This document shows, piece after piece, positions 12,565-58,590 of a stretch of DNA of 64,000 bases. The position numbers and the translations under genes were made by a program. Location of the stretch: NCBI GenBank assembly GCA_016872775.1, contig VGZA01000026.1, forward strand, positions 11,821 through 75,820, given 5' to 3'. Source of the DNA: Planctomycetota bacterium. Lineage in GTDB: Bacteria; Planctomycetota; Planctomycetia; Pirellulales; Pirellulaceae. Each line of letters opens with the position of its first letter. Position 1 is the first letter of the stretch. The notes under the pieces are model-generated. The model saw only the letters and a list, made by a program, of their open reading frames with translations, ran no database searches and was not told where the DNA came from.

Positions 12565-13599
12565 TCAGTGGTCCGAGACGTGGTGGGTATCCTGTTCGGT
12601 TTCCCGTCCGGTGCCAACGTTCACGCTGGCATGGCATTTCAACCTGGTCTCGCCATGCAGATTGGTCGTGATCTCGAGAGTGGTTGCAATCTTGCGAATG
12701 TCTTTGGTGGCCTGGAAAGTCACCGGGATCACATGGACTTTGCTCGCCTTGTCGGGGATCTGAAAGGCGAATCCCGCTTCGTCGCAGTCGATGTTCTTGA
12801 TCTTGAATGGTTGCTTCCCTTTGACCACCAGTTTACCGGTGGCCGTGCCGTCCGGCGCGACCTCTCCGAGGAAGAACGGTGAGGGGCTTACCGACAGTGC
12901 GGGCGCGATGCGCCCCGTTACCGCCAGGGGAATCTTCTCCATTTTTGCGTCATCGGTCACGATCAGCAGTCGATCGCGCAAGTTGCCTTCCGGTGCGTCG
13001 GGTTTGAGTTCGACGAGCATATCGTAGACCACGCGTCCGCCCGCGCGTTGCACCTCTTTCAATTCGACTTCGAAATGGGAGTTCGAACTCTGGACATCGC
13101 GAATCTGCCAGTCGCCGCGTCCCGCGTAGGTTACTTGGACTTTTTTGCTTGCGGTGGTGCCCAGGTCGACCGCGCCGAAGTCAATTTCACCCGGGCTGAA
13201 CACCACGTCGCTGCGGATATAGCCGCGAATCTGCAACTGCACCTGCGCGTAGAACGGTTTGTCGATGGTGACGGTGAGCGTGGCGCTGCGCTGGCCCAGG
13301 AAGGTTCGTGTATTGAACACCGCCAGAATCGAGCTCTTTTCCCAGGTCTTCAAGTCGTGCTTGGTCACGGTGGGGGTTGTGCACCCGCAACTGGTCTGCA
13401 CGCCGACAATATGCAAGTCTTCTTCGTACAGGTTTTCCAGTTCAAACGCGAATTCCTGACGCGATCCTTTCGCGACGGAACCGAAGTCATGCTCACTGAC
13501 CTTGAACATCTTGCGTGCCCATTCCTGCGCCGCAAGCGGAGGCGGGGTCAGCCAGGCGAGGACGATCAGAGGAGCCAGTAACAATTTTCGCGCTGTCAC
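12565..13599 (-). CDS. DUF1573 domain-containing secreted protein.
   Basis: Signal peptide plus HDFGSVAKGSRQEFAFELENLYEEDLHIVGVQTSCGCT, the DUF1573 hallmark common in Planctomycetota. Confidence 0.75.
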   Translation of the reverse strand: MTARKLLLAPLIVLAWLTPPPLAAQEWARKMFKVSEHDFGSVAKGSRQEFAFELENLYEEDLHIVGVQTSCGCTTPTVTKHDLKTWEKSSILAVFNTRTFLGQRSATLTVTIDKPFYAQVQLQIRGYIRSDVVFSPGEIDFGAVDLGTTASKKVQVTYAGRGDWQIRDVQSSNSHFEVELKEVQRAGGRVVYDMLVELKPDAPEGNLRDRLLIVTDDAKMEKIPLAVTGRIAPALSVSPSPFFLGEVAPDGTATGKLVVKGKQPFKIKNIDCDEAGFAFQIPDKASKVHVIPVTFQATKDIRKIATTLEITTNLHGETRLKCHASVNVGTGRETEQDTHHVSDH

Positions 13600-27023: not shown

Positions 27024-27273
27024 CTATTCCTGCAATCCTTCGCTTTCCAGGGCGGAAGCGGATGCGAAAACTCGCCGCAGTGCCGCCAGCCGCCGTGCCG
27101 GCGCGACATGCCGTACTTCGAAATCAATCTGGCCAGCCGGATCGGACATGCAGTTGAAGATAACCCAGGTCGCTGGAACTGGCAGCCGGGCACAGCGATT
27201 GTCTATAATGATTTTGCGATTGCTCGTTTGCTGCCGCTGTCGTGCAACCATGGAGAACCAGGAGGGCCTTACG

Positions 27274-28305
27274 ATGACCAGGGTAGGACGGATTCTTGTT
27301 GTGACAATCGGTTTCGCATTCTTCTCTCCCGAGTCCGTGCGTGGCCAGTCTTTGCTGGAACGGTTGGAAAAGCGGCTGCAGTCGATTGGCGACGAGTTCA
27401 AAGAACCGCTCCGCGGTTCGGCGGGCGACGGTGAGCCGGCGGAGGACCTCGGGCGACCGGCGGACGGGCGGCCCGGTGCGTTGGGCTTGGTGGTCACCGA
27501 CGATCCGGACAGCGATCAGTTGCGCGTCGTTTCGGTTCGTGCCGGCAGTCCGGCGGAAAGAGCGGGATTCGAAGTGGACGACATCATCACTTCGATTGGC
27601 GGTCGCGGCATCCGCACTGCCGAAGAGATGGCCGAAGCGCTCTCGGAAGGCGGACGCGGCGAAAATATCCGGTTCGACGTGCTGCGTGATGGCGACCCCT
27701 TACGCCTGACGGTGATCTGGGGGACTCGTGAACTGCCTGCGAGCGCTCCGCGGATCGCTGTCTCCGAACGCCCATCGCTCGGTATTACCGTGAGACCGGT
27801 CACGGACGACGCTCGGGCTCGCTATGGACTCACCGTTCGACGCGGCGCCTTGATCTCAACCGTGAAGAGTGGAGGTGCCGCCGCCAAATACGGACTACCG
27901 GTCGGCGGGGTCATCGTGACGTTCAACGGGCAACCGATTGAAACGCCTCAGCAGCTCATCGCCGCGGTTCACGGCGCGCAGGTCGGCGAGGAAGTCGAGC
28001 TACGTTATTACCAAGGCGCCGAACTGCATCGGAAGCGCGTTCCGCTGGCGCCCGAGTTGGAACCGACGTCGCCGAACATGAACCGCAATCGGTCCGATGT
28101 CCCCCCCGCAGCGCGCCGCCGCGAAACGCTCGGCACCGAACTGCCGGCGGTTCGGCGCCTGGAAGAACTGCTGGAACGCACGCTGTCGCCCGCGGAACAG
28201 GCCGGCGCGACGCGTCTGGCCGACGAAGTGCAGATGCTGCGGCAGGAAGTCGAGGCCTTAAAGCGGCAGGTTGAGGAATTGACGCGCAAACTCGAGAATC
28301 GATAG
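27274..28305 (+). CDS. Secreted tandem-PDZ domain protein with a C-terminal coiled coil.
   Basis: The ATG follows GGAGGG. The signal peptide is MTRVGRILVVTIGFAFFSPESVRG. Two PDZ-like segments are present (GLVVTDD...GSPAERAGFEVDDIITSIGG and GITVRPVT...GGAAAKYGLPVGGVIVTFNGQPIETPQQL). The C-terminus LRQEVEALKRQVEELTRKLE is a coiled coil. Confidence 0.7.
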   Translation: MTRVGRILVVTIGFAFFSPESVRGQSLLERLEKRLQSIGDEFKEPLRGSAGDGEPAEDLGRPADGRPGALGLVVTDDPDSDQLRVVSVRAGSPAERAGFEVDDIITSIGGRGIRTAEEMAEALSEGGRGENIRFDVLRDGDPLRLTVIWGTRELPASAPRIAVSERPSLGITVRPVTDDARARYGLTVRRGALISTVKSGGAAAKYGLPVGGVIVTFNGQPIETPQQLIAAVHGAQVGEEVELRYYQGAELHRKRVPLAPELEPTSPNMNRNRSDVPPAARRRETLGTELPAVRRLEELLERTLSPAEQAGATRLADEVQMLRQEVEALKRQVEELTRKLENR

Positions 28306-37553: not shown

Positions 37554-37930
37554 GATGTTTGCCCGGCGCAAAAAAAGAGCCCCGCTGCTGGGAACAACGG
37601 GGCTCGGGGCGGGAGTCGACCCCCGGATTCCCTGCAGGTGGGTCGAGCACGAGAGAGTGGAGGTAATGCTCGGAGCGGGAATCAGGCGGCTGGCAGGCAA
37701 TGGGCAGGCGGTGACCATGTGCAGGGTCTGGTTTTGGACACGATTCACCTTTTCCAAGTCATCGGCCGGCAATGCTGGAATCCTTGATGTCGGCTGTCCT
37801 GGACGGCACGTCTTTGGCAGTTTGTCGAATCGTCAGAATCGGCACTCTTTCGCGGACCTGGCACGATCGGGCCGTTGCGGACCGCGGATTTGACGGGCCG
37901 CGAGACAACTTGAAATTCCTCGGAAAGACC

Positions 37931-39613
37931 ATGATGGCTCAACAATATATCTTCACGATGGAGCGGCTGACCAAGAAACATGGTCCCCGCGAGGTCCTTA
38001 AGGAAATCTGGCTGGCATTTTATCCCGGCGCCAAAATTGGCGTGCTGGGACGGAATGGCGCCGGCAAAAGTACGTTGCTGCGGATCATGGCGGGCACCGA
38101 CCGCGACTTCGACGGAACGGCGCGGCTCAGCGACGGATTCTCGTCCGGCTACCTTCCCCAGGAACCGCAGTTGAATCCGGAACGGGACGTCTGGGGCAAC
38201 ATCGCCGAAGCGGTCGAGCCCCGTCGACGAATGCTCGACCGATACAATGAAATCAGCGCCCGGCTCGGGGACCCTCTGGACGAATCCGAAATGCAGAAAC
38301 TGTGCGACGAACTGGCGCGTCTGCAAGATCGGATCGAGGCCGACAATACCTGGAATCTGGATCATGAATTGGAAGTCGCGATGGACGTGATGAACTTGCC
38401 CGAACGGGACGCCGATGTCACGCGGCTGTCGGGAGGGGAACGTCGACGCGTCGCGCTTTGTAAATTGCTCCTGCAACGCCCCGACATGCTTTTGCTGGAT
38501 GAACCGACCAACCACCTCGACGCCGAAGCGGTCGCATGGCTCGAACGGCACCTCGCCGAGTACCATGGAACGATCGTCGCGATCACCCATGACCGTTACT
38601 TCCTCGATAATGTCGCCAAGTGGATCCTGGAACTCGATCGCGGCCAAGGCATTCCTTGGGAAGGGAACTATTCTTCGTGGCTCGAACAGAAACAGGCCCG
38701 CCTGCAGCGCGAGGAAAAATCGCAGGAAGCGCGGCAAAAAACCCTGGCACGCGAACTGGAGTGGGTCCGCATGTCGCCGCGCGCCCGGCAGTCAAAAAGC
38801 AAGGCACGCATCAAGGCCTACGAACAGATGGCGTCCGAGCGATTCGAGGAACGGCCGGACGAATTCGAATTACAGATTCCACCGGGAAAACACCTGGGCG
38901 AACTGGTGATCGACGCGGACGGAATTAGCAAAGCGTATGGCGATCGGTTGTTGTTCGAGAATCTCAGTTTTCGATTGCCGGCCGGCGGAATCGTTGGCGT
39001 GATTGGACCCAACGGAGCAGGAAAGACAACTTTGTTCCGCATGTTTGTGGGTGAGGAACGCCCCGACGACGGTCAACTGCGCCTGGGTGAAACCGTGGAA
39101 TTGGGCTATGTCGACCAGAACCGCGACGCCTTGTCGCCGGAGAAAACGGTCTACGAGGAGATTTCGGGCGGAAACGACCTGCTGGAAATGGGCGGCAGGA
39201 AGATCCATGCCCGGGCCTACGTATCGCGCTTCAATTTCCGCGGACCCGACCAGGAGAAAAAAGTCGGCCAGCTTTCCGGAGGAGAACGCAATCGCGTGCA
39301 TCTCGCTAAACTGCTGCGCCGTGGTTCGAACGTACTGCTGCTGGATGAACCAACGAACGATCTCGATGTCGATACCCTGCGGGCACTTGAAGAGGCGATC
39401 TTGAACTACGTCGGCTGCGTGGTCGTGATTACGCACGATCGCTGGTTCCTCGATCGTATCGCCACCCATATTCTCGCCTTTGAGGGCGACGCTTATGTGC
39501 ATTGGTGCGAGGGCAATTTCCAGACCTACGAGGAACAACGCCGCGCCCGGCTGGGCATCGCCGTCGACGAGCCCCAGCGGTTTCGATACAAACGATTACA
39601 GAAACGATCATAA
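37931..39613 (+). CDS. ettA: Energy-dependent translational throttle protein EttA (ABC-F ATPase).
   Basis: MMAQQYIFTMERLTKKHG starts the protein. Two ABC cassettes are present (GRNGAGKST and GPNGAGKTT). The ABC signature LSGGERRRVALCKLL is seen in cassette 1, and LSGGERNRVHLAKLL in cassette 2. Length 560 aa. Confidence 0.9.
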   Translation: MMAQQYIFTMERLTKKHGPREVLKEIWLAFYPGAKIGVLGRNGAGKSTLLRIMAGTDRDFDGTARLSDGFSSGYLPQEPQLNPERDVWGNIAEAVEPRRRMLDRYNEISARLGDPLDESEMQKLCDELARLQDRIEADNTWNLDHELEVAMDVMNLPERDADVTRLSGGERRRVALCKLLLQRPDMLLLDEPTNHLDAEAVAWLERHLAEYHGTIVAITHDRYFLDNVAKWILELDRGQGIPWEGNYSSWLEQKQARLQREEKSQEARQKTLARELEWVRMSPRARQSKSKARIKAYEQMASERFEERPDEFELQIPPGKHLGELVIDADGISKAYGDRLLFENLSFRLPAGGIVGVIGPNGAGKTTLFRMFVGEERPDDGQLRLGETVELGYVDQNRDALSPEKTVYEEISGGNDLLEMGGRKIHARAYVSRFNFRGPDQEKKVGQLSGGERNRVHLAKLLRRGSNVLLLDEPTNDLDVDTLRALEEAILNYVGCVVVITHDRWFLDRIATHILAFEGDAYVHWCEGNFQTYEEQRRARLGIAVDEPQRFRYKRLQKRS

Positions 39614-39696: not shown

Positions 39697-39936
39697 ATGA
39701 CCGTCCTGAATTCCGGAGCCACCCGGGAATATTCCGACAACTTCGCGCGAGCCTTCGGCGCCAAGTCTGCTGGATTGAAAAGTGTAACCGCCAAGGCAGC
39801 CAACACCAGGACCACCAAAGCCAATAAGGTCGCCAAAGCCGGTTCCGCAAAAAAGTCGAAAACGGCAAGCCCTGCTGGAACCCGAACGGCGTCCAGGAAG
39901 TCTCCCTCTGGAAAAAAATCGGCACGCAAGGCCTGA
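39697..39936 (+). CDS. Lysine/alanine-rich histone H1-like small basic protein.
   Basis: AAGGAG is 9 nt upstream. The C-terminus ...KANKVAKAGSAKKSKTASPAGTRTASRKSPSGKKSARKA is lysine/alanine-rich. Confidence 0.5.
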   Translation: MTVLNSGATREYSDNFARAFGAKSAGLKSVTAKAANTRTTKANKVAKAGSAKKSKTASPAGTRTASRKSPSGKKSARKA

Positions 39937-40001
39937 GAACAGTCCCGCGTTTATTGCCCGTCGATGTAACTCGAAGTTTAATCCTCGCTGGAGCCACCCC
40001 G

Positions 40002-40238
40002 ATGCGCGTCCATCTCAAATACTGTGCAGCTTGAGGCTACGAACGGCAAGCGGTCAGTTTGACCGCCCGCATTCTTACCGAGTTCAAGCAGCAAATCACC
40101 AGTTTCGAACTCGAACCGTCCCGCGGCGGTTGTTTCGAACTCACCGTCAATAACGGCCTGGTCTATTCCAAGCTGGCGACGGGGCAGTTCCCAGACGAGG
40201 AGGAAATGGTCGCTGCCGTTCGCAATCGAATGAAGTGA
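40002..40238 (+). CDS. selW: SelW/Rdx-family selenoprotein (78 aa) with an in-frame UGA (Sec) at 40032..40034.
   Basis: GGAG lies 9 nt upstream of the ATG. Translation reads MRVHLKYCAA-U-GYERQAVSLTARILTEFKQQITSFELEPSRGGCFELTVNNGLVYSKLATGQFPDEEEMVAAVRNRMK*. The Y-C-x-x-U-G-Y redox motif and the GG.FE..VNG.L.(W)SK...G.FP tail match SelW-like proteins. The ORF track misses it because of the TGA. Confidence 0.7.
40050..40066 (+). other. SECIS-like hairpin GCGGTCA-GUU-UGACCGC, 16 nt 3' of the UGA.
   Basis: A perfect 7-bp stem is read directly. The apical loop contains G and U, and the position fits bacterial SECIS spacing. Confidence 0.45.
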
Positions 40239-40330
40239 AGATCGACGACGTGTCGATCGCAAAACTGGATCAGAATATGGAACATGACGCAAGGCAGAAA
40301 GGTGTGGGGCATGGTGGGTCCTGCGTGTAG

Positions 40331-40420
40331 GGCGAAACTTGTTTCGCGGGACTTGTGATGCGAAACTTGTTGCGCGGGACAGGTCACGAAACAAGTTTCG
40401 TGTTACGTAGCGCGAAACCC
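40331..40420. repeat. Cluster of 3-4 copies of a palindromic element with core CGAAACTTGTTTCG (two direct 21-mers GCGAAACTTGTTTCGCGGGAC, one inverted copy, one partial).
   Basis: Copies are read at 40331..40352, 40360..40380 and 40385..40402 (inverted), plus a partial copy at 40410..40420. Confidence 0.7.
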
Positions 40421-40421
40421 T

Positions 40422-40679
40422 CTAGAATTCATCTTCTTGTCCGATGCCGCCCTGCCAGGCTTCGAGTGCCGCGAGCACGGCGTCGCGTTCTTGGCGGTTA
40501 GCCCAGACCGATTCATCCTGTTCCAGGCGAACTTCATACAGGCCTTCGCACTGGCATTCTTCATCGCCACAGAAATGGGGCACGGCGGCAATCCACATCA
40601 CGCGATAAAGGGGCACGTGTTTGTCGTCGACGAGGCAGAAAATCGATCGCGACTTCTCACCGCCGTTATCGTTCGCCAT
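40422..40679 (-). CDS. Small hypothetical Cys-containing protein (85 aa) downstream of proC.
   Basis: Track ORF containing CGDEECQCEG. It lies 10 nt after proC. Confidence 0.4.
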   Translation of the reverse strand: MANDNGGEKSRSIFCLVDDKHVPLYRVMWIAAVPHFCGDEECQCEGLYEVRLEQDESVWANRQERDAVLAALEAWQGGIGQEDEF

Positions 40680-42333: not shown

Positions 42334-44250
42334 ATGGCGATCGACCTGATTCTGGGAACCGCGGGCCACATCGATCACGGAAAGACCTCGTTGATCCGTG
42401 CGCTGACCGGTACCGACCCGGACCGACTGCCCGAGGAAAAACGCCGGGGGATCACGATCGACATCGGCTTCGCCCATCTCGACCTGGGCGCGTATCGGCT
42501 TGGAATCGTCGACGTACCGGGTCACGAGCGTTTTGTCCGCAACATGCTGGCCGGCGCCACCGGAATGGACCTGGCGATGCTGGTGGTGGCTGCCGACGAT
42601 TCGATCAAGCCGCAGACGCTGGAACACCTCGAAATTCTCCGTTTGCTGAAGCTGCCAGCTGGCGTGATCGTATTGACCAAGTCGGACATGGTGGATGCGG
42701 AATGGCTCGATCTGGTCGAGAGTGAAATCCGTGAACTGGTGGCCGGTACGTTCCTGGAATCGGCTCCGATTGTGCGGACGAGCATCGTCCGCAATTCCGG
42801 GTTTGACGAGCTGAAATCGGCGCTGCGTGTTGCGGCGGAGCGTGCCGCCGTGGCGCGCGGGCAAACCGACTCGAATAACCCGTTCCGCATGGCGATCGAC
42901 CGCGTATTCACTCTGGCGGGGCACGGGACGGTCGTCACCGGAAGCGTGAGCAGCGGCAGCTGTGCGACCGGGGACGAACTGCACCTGGAACCGGGCAGCA
43001 TTCCGGTTCGGGTACGGGGTATTGAGAACCATGACCACAGCGTTGAACGGGTGGTGCGCGGGCAACGAGCGGCGATCAATCTGGTAGGCGTCCATCACGA
43101 GCAGGTCCACCGCGGGCATGAGCTGGCGACACCGGGCCATTTGCGTTCCAGCCGCGTGTTAACGGTTCAGTTTACGTTGCTGCCGACCGCCGCGCATCCG
43201 CTGAAGAGCCGACAACGCGTACGACTGCACGTGGGAACAGCCGAAATCCTCGCGTCGGTAATGCTGCTCGACCGCGACCGGTTGGAACCGGGCGAATTGG
43301 GCTCCCTGCAGCTGTTTCTGCTGCAGGGAGCGGCCACGACCTGGGGACAGCCGTTCGTCTTACGCAGCGAATCGCCGGTAATCACGATCGGCGGCGGAAG
43401 GGTGCTCGATCCCGATGCCGAACGGTTGCGCCGACCTGATGCGGACACGCTCGAACAAGTTCGCTCGCTCAGCAGCGACGAGCCTTTGGTACGTGCTGGA
43501 GCGGCGTTGTTCCTGGCCGGATTTCGTGACTGGCGTCCCGACGACTGGCAGCGGTCGGCCGGCATCACAGCCACCGCGCCGGTTTACGACGCCTTGAAAG
43601 GTCGAGGAGACGTCATTGAAATCCCCCTGTCGCCGACCCGAAATTGGCGGGGCCACCGACTCGTGCTCGACCGACTTTGCGACCGGATCGCCGCCGCGCT
43701 GGAAACGTTGCATCGCCAGAACCCGTTACGCATGACCCTGGACCGTTCGCGTGTCGGCAGCGGATTCGCCTACTTGCCTGACCCGGCCTTGTTTGATGCG
43801 GCACTGGAGCGAATGCGCCGGGCCGGTCGGCTGAGGATCGTCCCGAACGGAATCACGCTGGCGGGACAGGGGCCCAAGTTGTCGGCCAATGAGCAGAAGC
43901 TGTTGACGCAGATTGTCGACCAGTATCGTGCGGCCGGCGTTGAGCCGCCCACGGTTAAAGAACTCCAGGCGCAAACGGTGAAAAATCAAAATGCCGTTCC
44001 GCAACTCGTGTCGCTGGCGGCCGATGACGGGCAGCTGGTCAAGATCAATAACGATTTCTACCTCCATGCCGACGTCGACCGGGAGATTCGCGAGAAGCTA
44101 CGGCCGCAGTTGGCCGACCAGGGCCTGACGGTCAGCCAGATCCGGGAGTTGCTCGGGACCTCGCGCAAGTACGCCTTGCCCCTTTGCGAACATTTCGACA
44201 AGGTCGGATTCACGCGCCGTCTGGGCGATGTACGATATCTTGGGAGTTAA
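42334..44250 (+). CDS. selB: Selenocysteine-specific elongation factor SelB.
   Basis: The EF-Tu-like GTPase starts [34 protein letters not shown] and the C-terminal winged-helix extension are present. Length 638 aa. Confidence 0.9.
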
Positions 44251-44294: not shown

Positions 44295-45689
44295 ATGGCA
44301 CCCAACGTGCTTCGCAACATCCCGTCCGTCAACGAATTGCTGGAGAGCCCGCCGCTGCGCGGGCTGGTCGAGCGGGTTAATCGCAACGTGGTGGTGAGCG
44401 GTGTCCGCTCCTTCCTGGACAACCTGCGGGGCGACCTGCAGTCGGTGACCGACTTCCGCGTGCCAACGCCGACCGAATTGGCCGAGACGATTGCGTCCTG
44501 GATCCTGGCCGGCGAGGAACCGCCGCTGCGGCCCGTAATCAATGCCACGGGAGTCCTGCTGCATACCGGGCTGGGCCGAGCGCCCTTGGCGGAAGAAGCG
44601 GTGGCGGCGATGGTGGAAGTCAGCCGCGGCTACGCCAGCGTGGAACTCGACTTGAAATCCGGTGAGCGTTCCCAGCGCATCGTGGCGGTCGAGAAGCTGC
44701 TTTGCCAGGTCACCGGCGCCGAAGCTGCCGTCGTCGTGAATAACAACGCCGGCGCGACTCTGCTGGCCCTGACCGCGTTGGGATTAGGACGGGAAATCAT
44801 CGTCTCCCGCGGGCAGCTGATCGAGATCGGCGGCAGCTATCGCCTGCCCGACATCATGACCGCCAGCGGCGCCCGACTGCGGGAAGTGGGGACGACAAAC
44901 AAGACCCGCATCGCCGATTTCGCCAACGCGATCGGCGAACAGACCGCCGCGATGATGCGGGTGCACACCAGTAACTACGTTGTCTGTGGTTTTACCGAAC
45001 AGCCAACCCTGGAGGAACTCGTCGTGCTGGGCCGGGACAAGAACCTGCCGGTGATCGACGACATTGGGTCCGGTGCTTTGATCGACTTCGCCGAATTCGG
45101 CCTGAAAGGCGAACCGATCGCTTCGCAGAGCGTCGCGACCGGGGCCGACCTGGTGCTGTTCAGCGGCGACAAGCTGCTTGGCGGTCCTCAGTGCGGTGTC
45201 GTCGTCGGCAAACGACGCTGGGTGGACCGATTGAGTAAGCATCCGTTGACCCGCGCGCTGCGTGTCGATAAGGTGACGCTGGCCGGCCTCGCCGCCACGT
45301 TGAGGCTGTATCAGGATCCCGCCAAAGCACGCGAGGCGGTGCCGCTGCTGGCCTTGTTGGGAACGTCGATGGAGAACCTGCATCTGCGGGCGGAACGCAT
45401 CGCTCAAAAACTGGCCGTCGTGCCTGGCGTCCGATCGGCGGCGGTCCAGGAGGGTACCACGTTTCTTGGCGGCGGCTCCATCCCCACCCAACAGATCGGT
45501 ACCTGGTGCGTGGCGATCGAACCTCAGTCGGCGTCAGTCGACCTGTTCGCCAACTCCTTACGCGCCGGGATGCCGGCGGTTGTGGGACGCATCCAGCAGG
45601 GAAAACTGCTGCTCGACCTCCGCTCGGTACTGCCCCGGCAGGACATCGAATTGTCCGACGCCGTCGAAACCGTAACGCGAAACTTGTAG
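44295..45689 (+). CDS. selA: L-seryl-tRNA(Sec) selenium transferase SelA.
   Basis: LRNIPSVNELL...VINATGVLLHTGLGRAPL...GGPQCGVVVGKRRWV...DKVTLAGL matches the SelA family. Length 464 aa. Confidence 0.9.
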   Translation: MAPNVLRNIPSVNELLESPPLRGLVERVNRNVVVSGVRSFLDNLRGDLQSVTDFRVPTPTELAETIASWILAGEEPPLRPVINATGVLLHTGLGRAPLAEEAVAAMVEVSRGYASVELDLKSGERSQRIVAVEKLLCQVTGAEAAVVVNNNAGATLLALTALGLGREIIVSRGQLIEIGGSYRLPDIMTASGARLREVGTTNKTRIADFANAIGEQTAAMMRVHTSNYVVCGFTEQPTLEELVVLGRDKNLPVIDDIGSGALIDFAEFGLKGEPIASQSVATGADLVLFSGDKLLGGPQCGVVVGKRRWVDRLSKHPLTRALRVDKVTLAGLAATLRLYQDPAKAREAVPLLALLGTSMENLHLRAERIAQKLAVVPGVRSAAVQEGTTFLGGGSIPTQQIGTWCVAIEPQSASVDLFANSLRAGMPAVVGRIQQGKLLLDLRSVLPRQDIELSDAVETVTRNL

Positions 45690-58490: not shown

Positions 58491-58590
58491 GGAAGTGCCT
58501 GCACACCTGGTGGTGGCCACAGTCTTCAAAACTGCTGTGCCGTACGATAACCGTGCGGCAGGTGGGTTCGATTCCCATGCACTTCCGCCA
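58491..58590 (+). tRNA. selC: tRNA-Sec (selC), anticodon UCA, with CCA encoded.
   Basis: The 100-nt gene has an 8-bp acceptor stem (GGAAGTGC / GCACTTCC). The anticodon loop is CTTCAAA, identical to E. coli selC. A long extra arm (GCCGTACG-ATAAC-CGTGCGGC, 8 bp) is present. The T-arm is GTGGG-TTCGATT-CCCAT (5 bp), giving the 8/5 bacterial Sec structure. Discriminator G plus CCA at 58588..58590. One irregular position (bulged C) lies in the anticodon stem. Confidence 0.8.

Follow-up and report, generated by a model that had tools for sequence, protein, structure and literature searches.

A probable SelW-like selenoprotein gene with an in-frame UGA codon and a conserved hairpin in a planctomycete genome

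We analyzed a stretch of 64,000 nucleotides from a planctomycete of the Pirellulaceae (assembly GCA_016872775.1, contig VGZA01000026.1, positions 11,821 to 75,820 of the forward strand), which is called the window in the following and whose own numbering is used throughout. The frame at 40002..40238 is very probably a gene for a SelW-like selenoprotein of the Rdx family with 78 residues, in which an in-frame UGA codon is decoded as selenocysteine (Sec). The evidence comes from the family and fold of the product, from the conservation of the protein on both sides of the UGA in related planctomycetes, from a hairpin just downstream of the UGA which has the features that characterize a selenocysteine insertion sequence (SECIS), and from genes for the Sec machinery in the same window. 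SelW-like proteins with a CXXU motif are established bacterial selenoproteins and have been known since 2004-2005 (PMC1088965, PMC1794560); among the selenoprotein families of the Sargasso Sea data they ranked first in abundance, with 48 genes (PMC1088965). The gene described here is a member of this known family and a correction of the annotation, and it leaves the knowledge of Sec decoding and of the Rdx family unchanged. The only mildly unusual aspect is the uniformity of the SECIS across several planctomycete families.

The reading frame and its product

Starting from the ATG at 40002 the frame comprises 78 sense codons, closes with a terminal TGA at 40236..40238 and has a single interruption, the TGA at 40032..40034 (codon 11). 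The translation is MRVHLKYCAA*GYERQAVSLTARILTEFKQQITSFELEPSRGGCFELTVNNGLVYSKLATGQFPDEEEMVAAVRNRMK, where the asterisk marks this codon; the product ends in RNRMK and contains, with U at the interruption, the sequence Y-C-A-A-U-G-Y. A first-pass annotation, made from the letters of this DNA without database searches, had described the lone TGA in the frame of ATG 40002 as well as a Y-C-x-x-U-G-Y motif, and our re-reading agrees with it on both counts. It had also placed nine nucleotides between a GGAG motif and the ATG, where we count eight.

As a check of the family assignment it had been proposed to compare the protein with Rdx/SelW profiles, treating U as C. In this form the protein matches the Pfam family Rdx (PF10262) over profile positions 1-74 of 74 with 72.5 bits (cutoff 22.6, E = 3.4e-20) and the NCBIfam model TIGR02174 (CXXU_selWTH) end to end with 70.4 bits (cutoff 34.2, E = 1.2e-19), so that the curated cutoffs of both are exceeded over the full length. 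The equivalog cutoff of NF041051 (SelTWH_Campy), which is 88, is missed by the window protein with 65 bits. Judged by these profile scores the protein belongs to the family and lies outside the SelTWH_Campy subfamily. Its sequence relatives in the PDB are all Rdx proteins, namely MIEN1 (2ljk), Atu0228 (2fa8), 3dex, 2obk, 2oka, 2p0g, 2ojl and mouse SelW (2npb), and the residues C8-A-A-U11 stand in register with the CxxC of these relatives (2ljk, 2fa8).

The fold was examined on an AlphaFold 2 (AF2) model of the orthologue P0002, a full-length entry which is 65% identical to the window protein. The model has a predicted local distance difference test (pLDDT) score of 94 and consists of strand beta1 (residues 2-8), the CxxU loop, helix alpha1 (residues 14-31), the strands beta2, beta3 and beta4, and helix alpha2. 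The closest structures are the bacterial Rdx crystals 2obk, 2fa8 (Atu0228), 2oka, 2p0g, 3dex and 2ojl with template modelling (TM) scores of 0.90-0.94 and root mean square deviations of ~1.0-1.3 Å, followed by SelW, MIEN1 and thioredoxins. These bacterial structures share the register of the CxxC motif and differ in having Cys for Sec, in being only 22-30% identical and in being ~20-30 residues longer than the window protein. Mammalian SelW (2npb) and MIEN1 (2ljk) also belong to the Rdx family and share the position of the CxxU/CxxC motif, with lower TM scores of 0.70-0.72. On the basis of this model the product is predicted to have a small thioredoxin-like fold, beta1-alpha1-beta2-beta3-beta4-alpha2, with Cys8-x-x-Sec11 at the junction of beta1 and alpha1. 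Strand beta1 and the redox motif are located at or before the UGA.

The function of the bacterial SelW-like members has been described as unclear (PMC1088965). By analogy with the family, the product would most likely be a thiol-dependent oxidoreductase in which Cys8 and Sec11 cycle between the selenenylsulfide and the thiol/selenol form.

Conservation on both sides of the UGA codon

In a scan that took a single genome for each species, 556 related loci were confirmed. The best 80 of these 556 were compared, and together with the window they make up the 81 sequences to which the counts below refer. Nearly all of the best 80 loci are labelled Planctomycetota, from the Pirellulaceae, Gemmataceae, Isosphaeraceae and Planctomycetaceae. 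Two of them, L033 and L069, are labelled as metagenome-assembled genomes (MAGs) of Alcaligenaceae, yet their genes group with the Gemmataceae-type sequences; probably these are mis-binned contigs.

The homologous codon is TGA in 79 of the 80 loci and TGC, a Cys codon, in the remaining one (L065). The search for Cys-containing orthologues in related planctomycetes, which had been suggested along with the first reading of the gene, therefore yields this single case. Cys replaces Sec in L065, and the PDB homologues are CxxC forms as well. The ratio of 79:1 agrees with the report that SelW-like proteins have few Cys homologues in Sec-using bacteria (PMC1794560). Approximately 3 kb downstream of the Cys-form gene of L065 (L065:4031..4096) there is a gene for SelB (L065:7058..8197). 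Since this genome still encodes SelB, the change from Sec to Cys happened in a Sec-using genome.

An ATG is present ten codons before the UGA in 77 of the 81 sequences. The peptide before the UGA, M-K-[IVL]-H-L-R-Y-C-x-x, is maintained with free variation of its codons: at Leu-6, counted from the UGA, all six codons are used (2.45 bits), and Tyr-4 and Cys-3 are conserved to 99% and 100%, respectively. From the UGA to the TTG at 40059, a further eight codons are conserved on the protein level across the 80 loci and show synonymous variation. As the ten upstream codons are conserved as protein and at the same time free to change synonymously, we conclude that translation runs through the UGA.

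Purifying selection of this kind, acting on a protein encoded across the UGA, counts against two other explanations, a pseudogene and a product of 59 residues that begins behind the UGA. Looking at the single sequence of the window, an in-frame stop could well be the nonsense mutation of a pseudogene. The same TGA is found, however, in all 79 of the loci mentioned above, in several planctomycete families and with flanks under purifying selection, and the probability of a pseudogene is practically negligible.

Database entries and the product of 59 residues

The second of these explanations takes the UGA as an ordinary stop, the real product as a protein of 59 residues starting from TTG 40059, and the frame upstream as an untranslated leader. 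It agrees with the state of the databases. Our search returned 45 homologues, nearly all of them 58-62 residues long and starting after the UGA, with the names "SelT/SelW/SelH family protein" or "selenoprotein W-related protein". The dozens of versions of this length include P0001, an NCBI entry from a planctomycete MAG named "SelT/SelW/SelH family protein", which is identical to the open reading frame (ORF) 40059..40238. It is also true that TGA acts as a normal stop elsewhere in the window. Against this explanation stand the ten codons before the UGA and the eight codons from the UGA to the TTG, all conserved on the protein level, and the regular presence of the upstream ATG. Moreover, the position of the proposed start reads CTG in 21 of the 81 sequences, and the short product would be without strand beta1 and the CxxU motif, which define the fold. 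We give this explanation extremely little weight compared to a gene that is read through the UGA from ATG 40002.

These entries also bear on two statements of the first-pass annotation. That standard ORF callers split or miss the gene is supported by the public homologues, most of which are fragments starting past the UGA. That the gene is unannotated holds for the N-terminus with the CxxU motif, which is missing from GenBank; the 3' fragment is present there as P0001 and carries the right family name. The public records of the window gene and of dozens of its orthologues are thus fragments of 58-62 residues without the active site. Restoring the N-terminus would correct the proteome and would enlarge the set of selenoproteins in a planctomycete lineage about whose use of selenium little has been described.

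Two full-length entries, P0002 and P0004, have Trp at the position of Sec (YCSAWNYEP and YCAMWNYEP). This is best explained by gene callers which likely applied a table with TGA=Trp to short contigs. The Trp reading is a second kind of mis-annotation in the SelW-like family, besides the truncation.

The hairpin downstream of the UGA

A perfect hairpin of 7 bp shortly after the UGA, at the place where a bacterial SECIS should be located, was part of the original description of the gene. The sequence GCGGUCA-GUU-UGACCGC at 40050..40066 indeed forms a perfect stem of 7 bp, whose first base is the 16th nucleotide after the UGA. The hairpin lies on codons 17-22 (A-V-S-L-T-A) and is found within the minimum free energy (MFE) fold, which has -16.4 kcal/mol for 54-60 nt; the hairpin alone has -9.9 kcal/mol. 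The published model of the bacterial SECIS (bSECIS) comprises an apical loop of 3-9 nt on a stem of 4-16 bp, a G within the first two positions of the loop, a spacer of 16-37 nt separating the loop from the UGA and an MFE of at most -7.5 kcal/mol (PMC13188914). With the loop GUU, the 7-bp stem, a spacing of 22 nt and -16.4 kcal/mol the window lies within all four limits, and 65 of the 81 orthologues do so in a plain MFE fold. The window was also searched for additional occurrences of the hairpin core, allowing at most two mismatches; this gave 9 matches, compared to 7.9 expected by chance, and no additional one stands out.

The hairpin was compared in an ungapped alignment of the 81 sequences by explicit counts of base pairs and by codon entropies. 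Each of the inner five pairs forms in at least 96% of the sequences, and 76 sequences have the five of them intact. The loop starts with G in every sequence and reads GUY in 78. At the third pair, C-G occurs in 72 sequences, U-A in four, G-C in one, which is the window itself, and U-G in one. These changes fall on synonymous third positions of the Ala and Thr/Ala codons (GCC/ACG, GCG/ACC, GCU/GCA). Bases pair in 86% of the cells of the proposed structure and in 21-49% of those of slid registers, and the observed covariation score was reached by none of 500 shuffles. Failure of the stem to show covariance in related genomes had been named at the outset as an observation that would speak against a SECIS; we find that one pair covaries (CG/UA/GC/UG) and that the synonymous sites of the stem are frozen.

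This freezing can be followed codon by codon. The stem codons A-V-S-L-T (+6 to +10 relative to the UGA) have entropies of 0.43, 0.20, 0.10, 0.83 and 0.45 bits, whereas equally conserved codons for Leu, Ser, Pro and Gly elsewhere in the gene have 1.5-2.5 bits. AGU encodes Ser+8 in 78 of 79 sequences, as compared with 1 of 70 and none of 81 for the two other conserved serines. The freeze of the synonymous sites is, as far as sequence comparison goes, the most telling evidence for a SECIS, and it points to a constraint on the hairpin at the RNA level.

Two loci depart from the pattern, and both fit the SECIS reading. L061 (L061:4031..4096) keeps the UGA and is without the family hairpin, having GUG AGC CUG AGC in its place. 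At 17 nt after the UGA it has a substitute hairpin of 7 bp, CUCAGGC-CGUGA-GCCUGAG, whose loop contains a G; this looks like SECIS turnover. In L065, the only Cys form, the stem has one mismatch and two wobbles, and the hairpin drops out of the MFE fold.

Several points weigh against our reading of the gene. Within the window, 12% of random TGA triplets also pass the bSECIS limits, and the z-score of the fold against shuffles is weak (-1.35 for the single sequence); the significance of the hairpin therefore rests on the comparative data. Here RNAalifold on the alignment of 81 sequences gave no consensus hairpin (-0.41 kcal/mol), and of the seven stem pairs a single one has a double compensatory change. 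Only ~55-60% of the sequences form the two outer pairs in the ungapped register, and many sequences retain them through a one-base bulge. The stem also overlaps the conserved peptide AVSL, so its conservation is partly protein-driven. Apart from the hairpin, the modelled protein is the orthologue P0002 and not the window protein itself, and SelD is absent from the 20 larger ORFs that were scanned in the 64-kb window; it may be encoded outside the window or in another of its ORFs. Finally, the incorporation of selenium at the UGA is inferred.

Part of this can be put together to the explanation that the hairpin is a by-product of the AVSL peptide and the codon bias and not a SECIS, any recoding being due to another signal. 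The nearly invariant peptide under the stem, the missing RNAalifold consensus and the single compensatory pair argue for it, and so does the Cys form L065, which retains most of the hairpin sequence. Set against these are the five stem codons, which are far more frozen than comparable codons of the same gene, and the rare Ser codon AGU, which is fixed only here. In addition, the changes of the third pair are both compensatory and synonymous, and the replacement hairpin of L061 lies in the allowed window of distances. We regard a mere by-product as quite unlikely and prefer the reading of the hairpin as a SECIS. A practical outcome is a signature for searches across the Planctomycetota, YC-x-x-UGA-[NG]-YEP-x-AVSL together with a GUY-loop hairpin 22 nt downstream.

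Sec machinery and a possible mechanism

SelB, SelA and tRNA-Sec had all been noticed in the window before, and the profile matches as well as ARAGORN and Rfam agree with this assignment (Table 1).

Selenoprotein UGAs are sometimes misread as Cys or Trp under limiting selenium. The UGA of the SelW-like gene could accordingly be decoded as something other than Sec, either by near-cognate read-through with Trp or Cys or because the code is reassigned, and the W at the UGA position of P0002 and P0004 would be in line with this. A reassignment of TGA to Trp was considered and rejected: the ProC, GuaA, Eno and RsmA genes of the window end in TGA at the expected ends of their profiles, and with TGA as the normal stop of four conserved genes there is no reassignment of the code. 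Further arguments against non-Sec decoding are that SelB, SelA and tRNA-Sec are encoded nearby, that the SECIS-type hairpin is constrained as RNA, and that the UGA stands where the family has its redox Cys/Sec. Taken together, decoding as an amino acid other than Sec appears highly improbable.

For decoding as Sec, the established bacterial mechanism and the family suggest the following course. The ribosome would arrive at the UGA of codon 11, and codons 17-22 would display, in the hairpin at 40050..40066, the G-U of the apical loop 22 nt downstream of the UGA. This loop would be bound by the C-terminal winged-helix domains of SelB, which is encoded 2.3 kb downstream. SelB-GTP would then bring Sec-tRNA(Sec), made by SelA on the tRNA-Sec from 58491, to the A site, and Sec would be inserted in place of termination. 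The insertion of Sec, the binding of SelB to the hairpin and the redox role of the product are all presumed by this analogy.

Table 1. Features of the SelW-like gene and of the Sec machinery in the window
Feature	Position	Strand	Basis
Full-length SelW-like/Rdx selenoprotein coding sequence (probable)	40002..40238	+	Full-length matches to PF10262 and TIGR02174; 80 orthologous loci conserved on either side of the UGA
GGAG Shine-Dalgarno-like motif (candidate)	39990..39993	+	Read from the sequence; 8 nt before ATG 40002
C-A-A-U redox motif, Cys8 (TGT) to Sec11 (TGA)	40023..40034	+	Same register as CxxC in 2ljk and 2fa8; Cys8 in 81/81 sequences
Sec UGA codon (predicted)	40032..40034	+	TGA in 79/80 orthologous loci, TGC in L065
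Bacterial SECIS hairpin (predicted), 7-bp stem, apical loop GUU at 40057..40059	40050..40066	+	bSECIS criteria and comparative data
Truncated ORF of public databases, TTG start, 59 residues; not the true gene start	40059..40238	+	Identical to P0001
selB, Sec-specific elongation factor (in trans)	42334..44250	+	TIGR00475, 360 bits; Pfam SelB-wing_3, 61.8 bits, and SelB-wing_2, 29.3 bits
selA, selenocysteine synthase (in trans)	44295..45689	+	TIGR00474, 538.6 bits, profile positions 1-453/455
tRNA-Sec (selC), anticodon UCA	58491..58590	+	ARAGORN; Rfam RF01852, 66.9 bits (gathering score 47)

Comparison with known systems

The bacterial SelW-like proteins (PF10262, TIGR02174) have in common a length of ~75-80 residues, an N-terminal CxxU at the beta1/alpha1 junction and the Rdx fold. 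They also share an in-frame SECIS hairpin after the Sec codon, and Cys forms are rare in Sec users (PMC1088965, PMC1794560). The window gene is no different in kind and represents a planctomycete clade of this group. Sec usage has been reported in planctomycetes, and the one selenoproteome table that was consulted has no SelW/Rdx member (PMC4807772). Eukaryotic SelW differs in the mode of decoding, which depends on a SECIS in the 3' untranslated region together with SBP2 and eEFSec and not on an in-frame hairpin read by SelB (PMC1088965).

For the hairpin, the SECIS of fdhF from Escherichia coli is a known counterpart, and the window copy differs from it in sequence and shows no evident bulged U. 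The fdhF SECIS is bound by the C-terminal winged helix of SelB, and its loop G-U occupies positions 23-24, counting the U of the UGA as 1. The loop G-U of the window hairpin is at positions 26-27. The two elements agree in type, each being an in-frame hairpin a short way 3' of the UGA whose small apical loop contains G-U (PMC13188914).

The SECIS of the planctomycete genes, GCCGUCA-GUY-UGRCGGC, is unusually uniform over the Pirellulaceae, Gemmataceae, Isosphaeraceae and Planctomycetaceae. The usual picture is that the SECIS elements of different genes and taxa in bacteria share little sequence. A nearly invariant SECIS which is locked on AVSL throughout the phylum might form a clade-specific class, provided that SelB reads the sequence in addition to the shape; we consider this unlikely. 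If it were true, the hairpin could be used as a key to search for the remaining planctomycete selenoproteins.

Neighbourhood of the gene and other features of the window

Ahead of the SelW-like gene lie ettA (37772..39613) and a small ORF rich in Lys and Ala, and the SelW-like gene converges on a gene for 85 residues and on proC. In the flanks of the 80 loci, ettA is present upstream in 21 and proC downstream in 14; this adjacency is ordinary synteny of the Pirellulales. We also considered a conserved linkage to selB-selA and rejected it, as SelB occurs in the 4-kb downstream flank of only 3 of the 80 loci. That the gene lies near selB-selA is a feature of its lineage, not of the family. In this lineage, the distance of 2-3 kb between the gene and selB-selA might point to a function in the handling of selenium and not in general redox defence.

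Two ORFs elsewhere in the window touch on other selenoprotein families. The ORF at 12565..13599 on the minus strand (344 residues) matches the NCBIfam model OS_HP2 family (seleno)protein with residues 35-128, scoring 53 bits (cutoff 100). The matched part is without an in-frame UGA, and the ORF may encode a Cys-form relative of another selenoprotein family. The ORF at 27148..28305 on the plus strand was considered as a second selenoprotein and rejected. Only the PDZ half of a Trx7/PDZ (seleno)protein model is matched; since many stops interrupt the frame upstream and a signal peptide is found at the start of the protein, it is not a selenoprotein but an ordinary PDZ protein.

The small ORF between ettA and the SelW-like gene (39697..39936, plus strand) encodes 79 residues and is basic and rich in Lys, Ala and Ser. 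NCBIfam gave no match for it, nor did tblastn against the 80 related loci, and it may be a histone-like protein or not a gene. The ORF of 85 residues (40422..40679, minus strand) has a C-x-x-x-x-C-x-C motif and no family match; its product is a conserved small protein, found with 59-77% identity beside proC in 11 of the 80 loci. Between this ORF and the SelW-like gene, which are convergent, a cluster of 14-nt palindromes extends over 40327..40418. The palindrome CGAAACTTGTTTCG is located at 40333, a copy with one mismatch at 40361 and the reverse complement CGAAACAAGTTTCG at 40387, and the cluster is bracketed by the direct repeats GTAG[GC]GCGAAAC at 40327 and 40407. It could be a terminator, an element similar to repetitive extragenic palindromic (REP) sequences or an array of operators.

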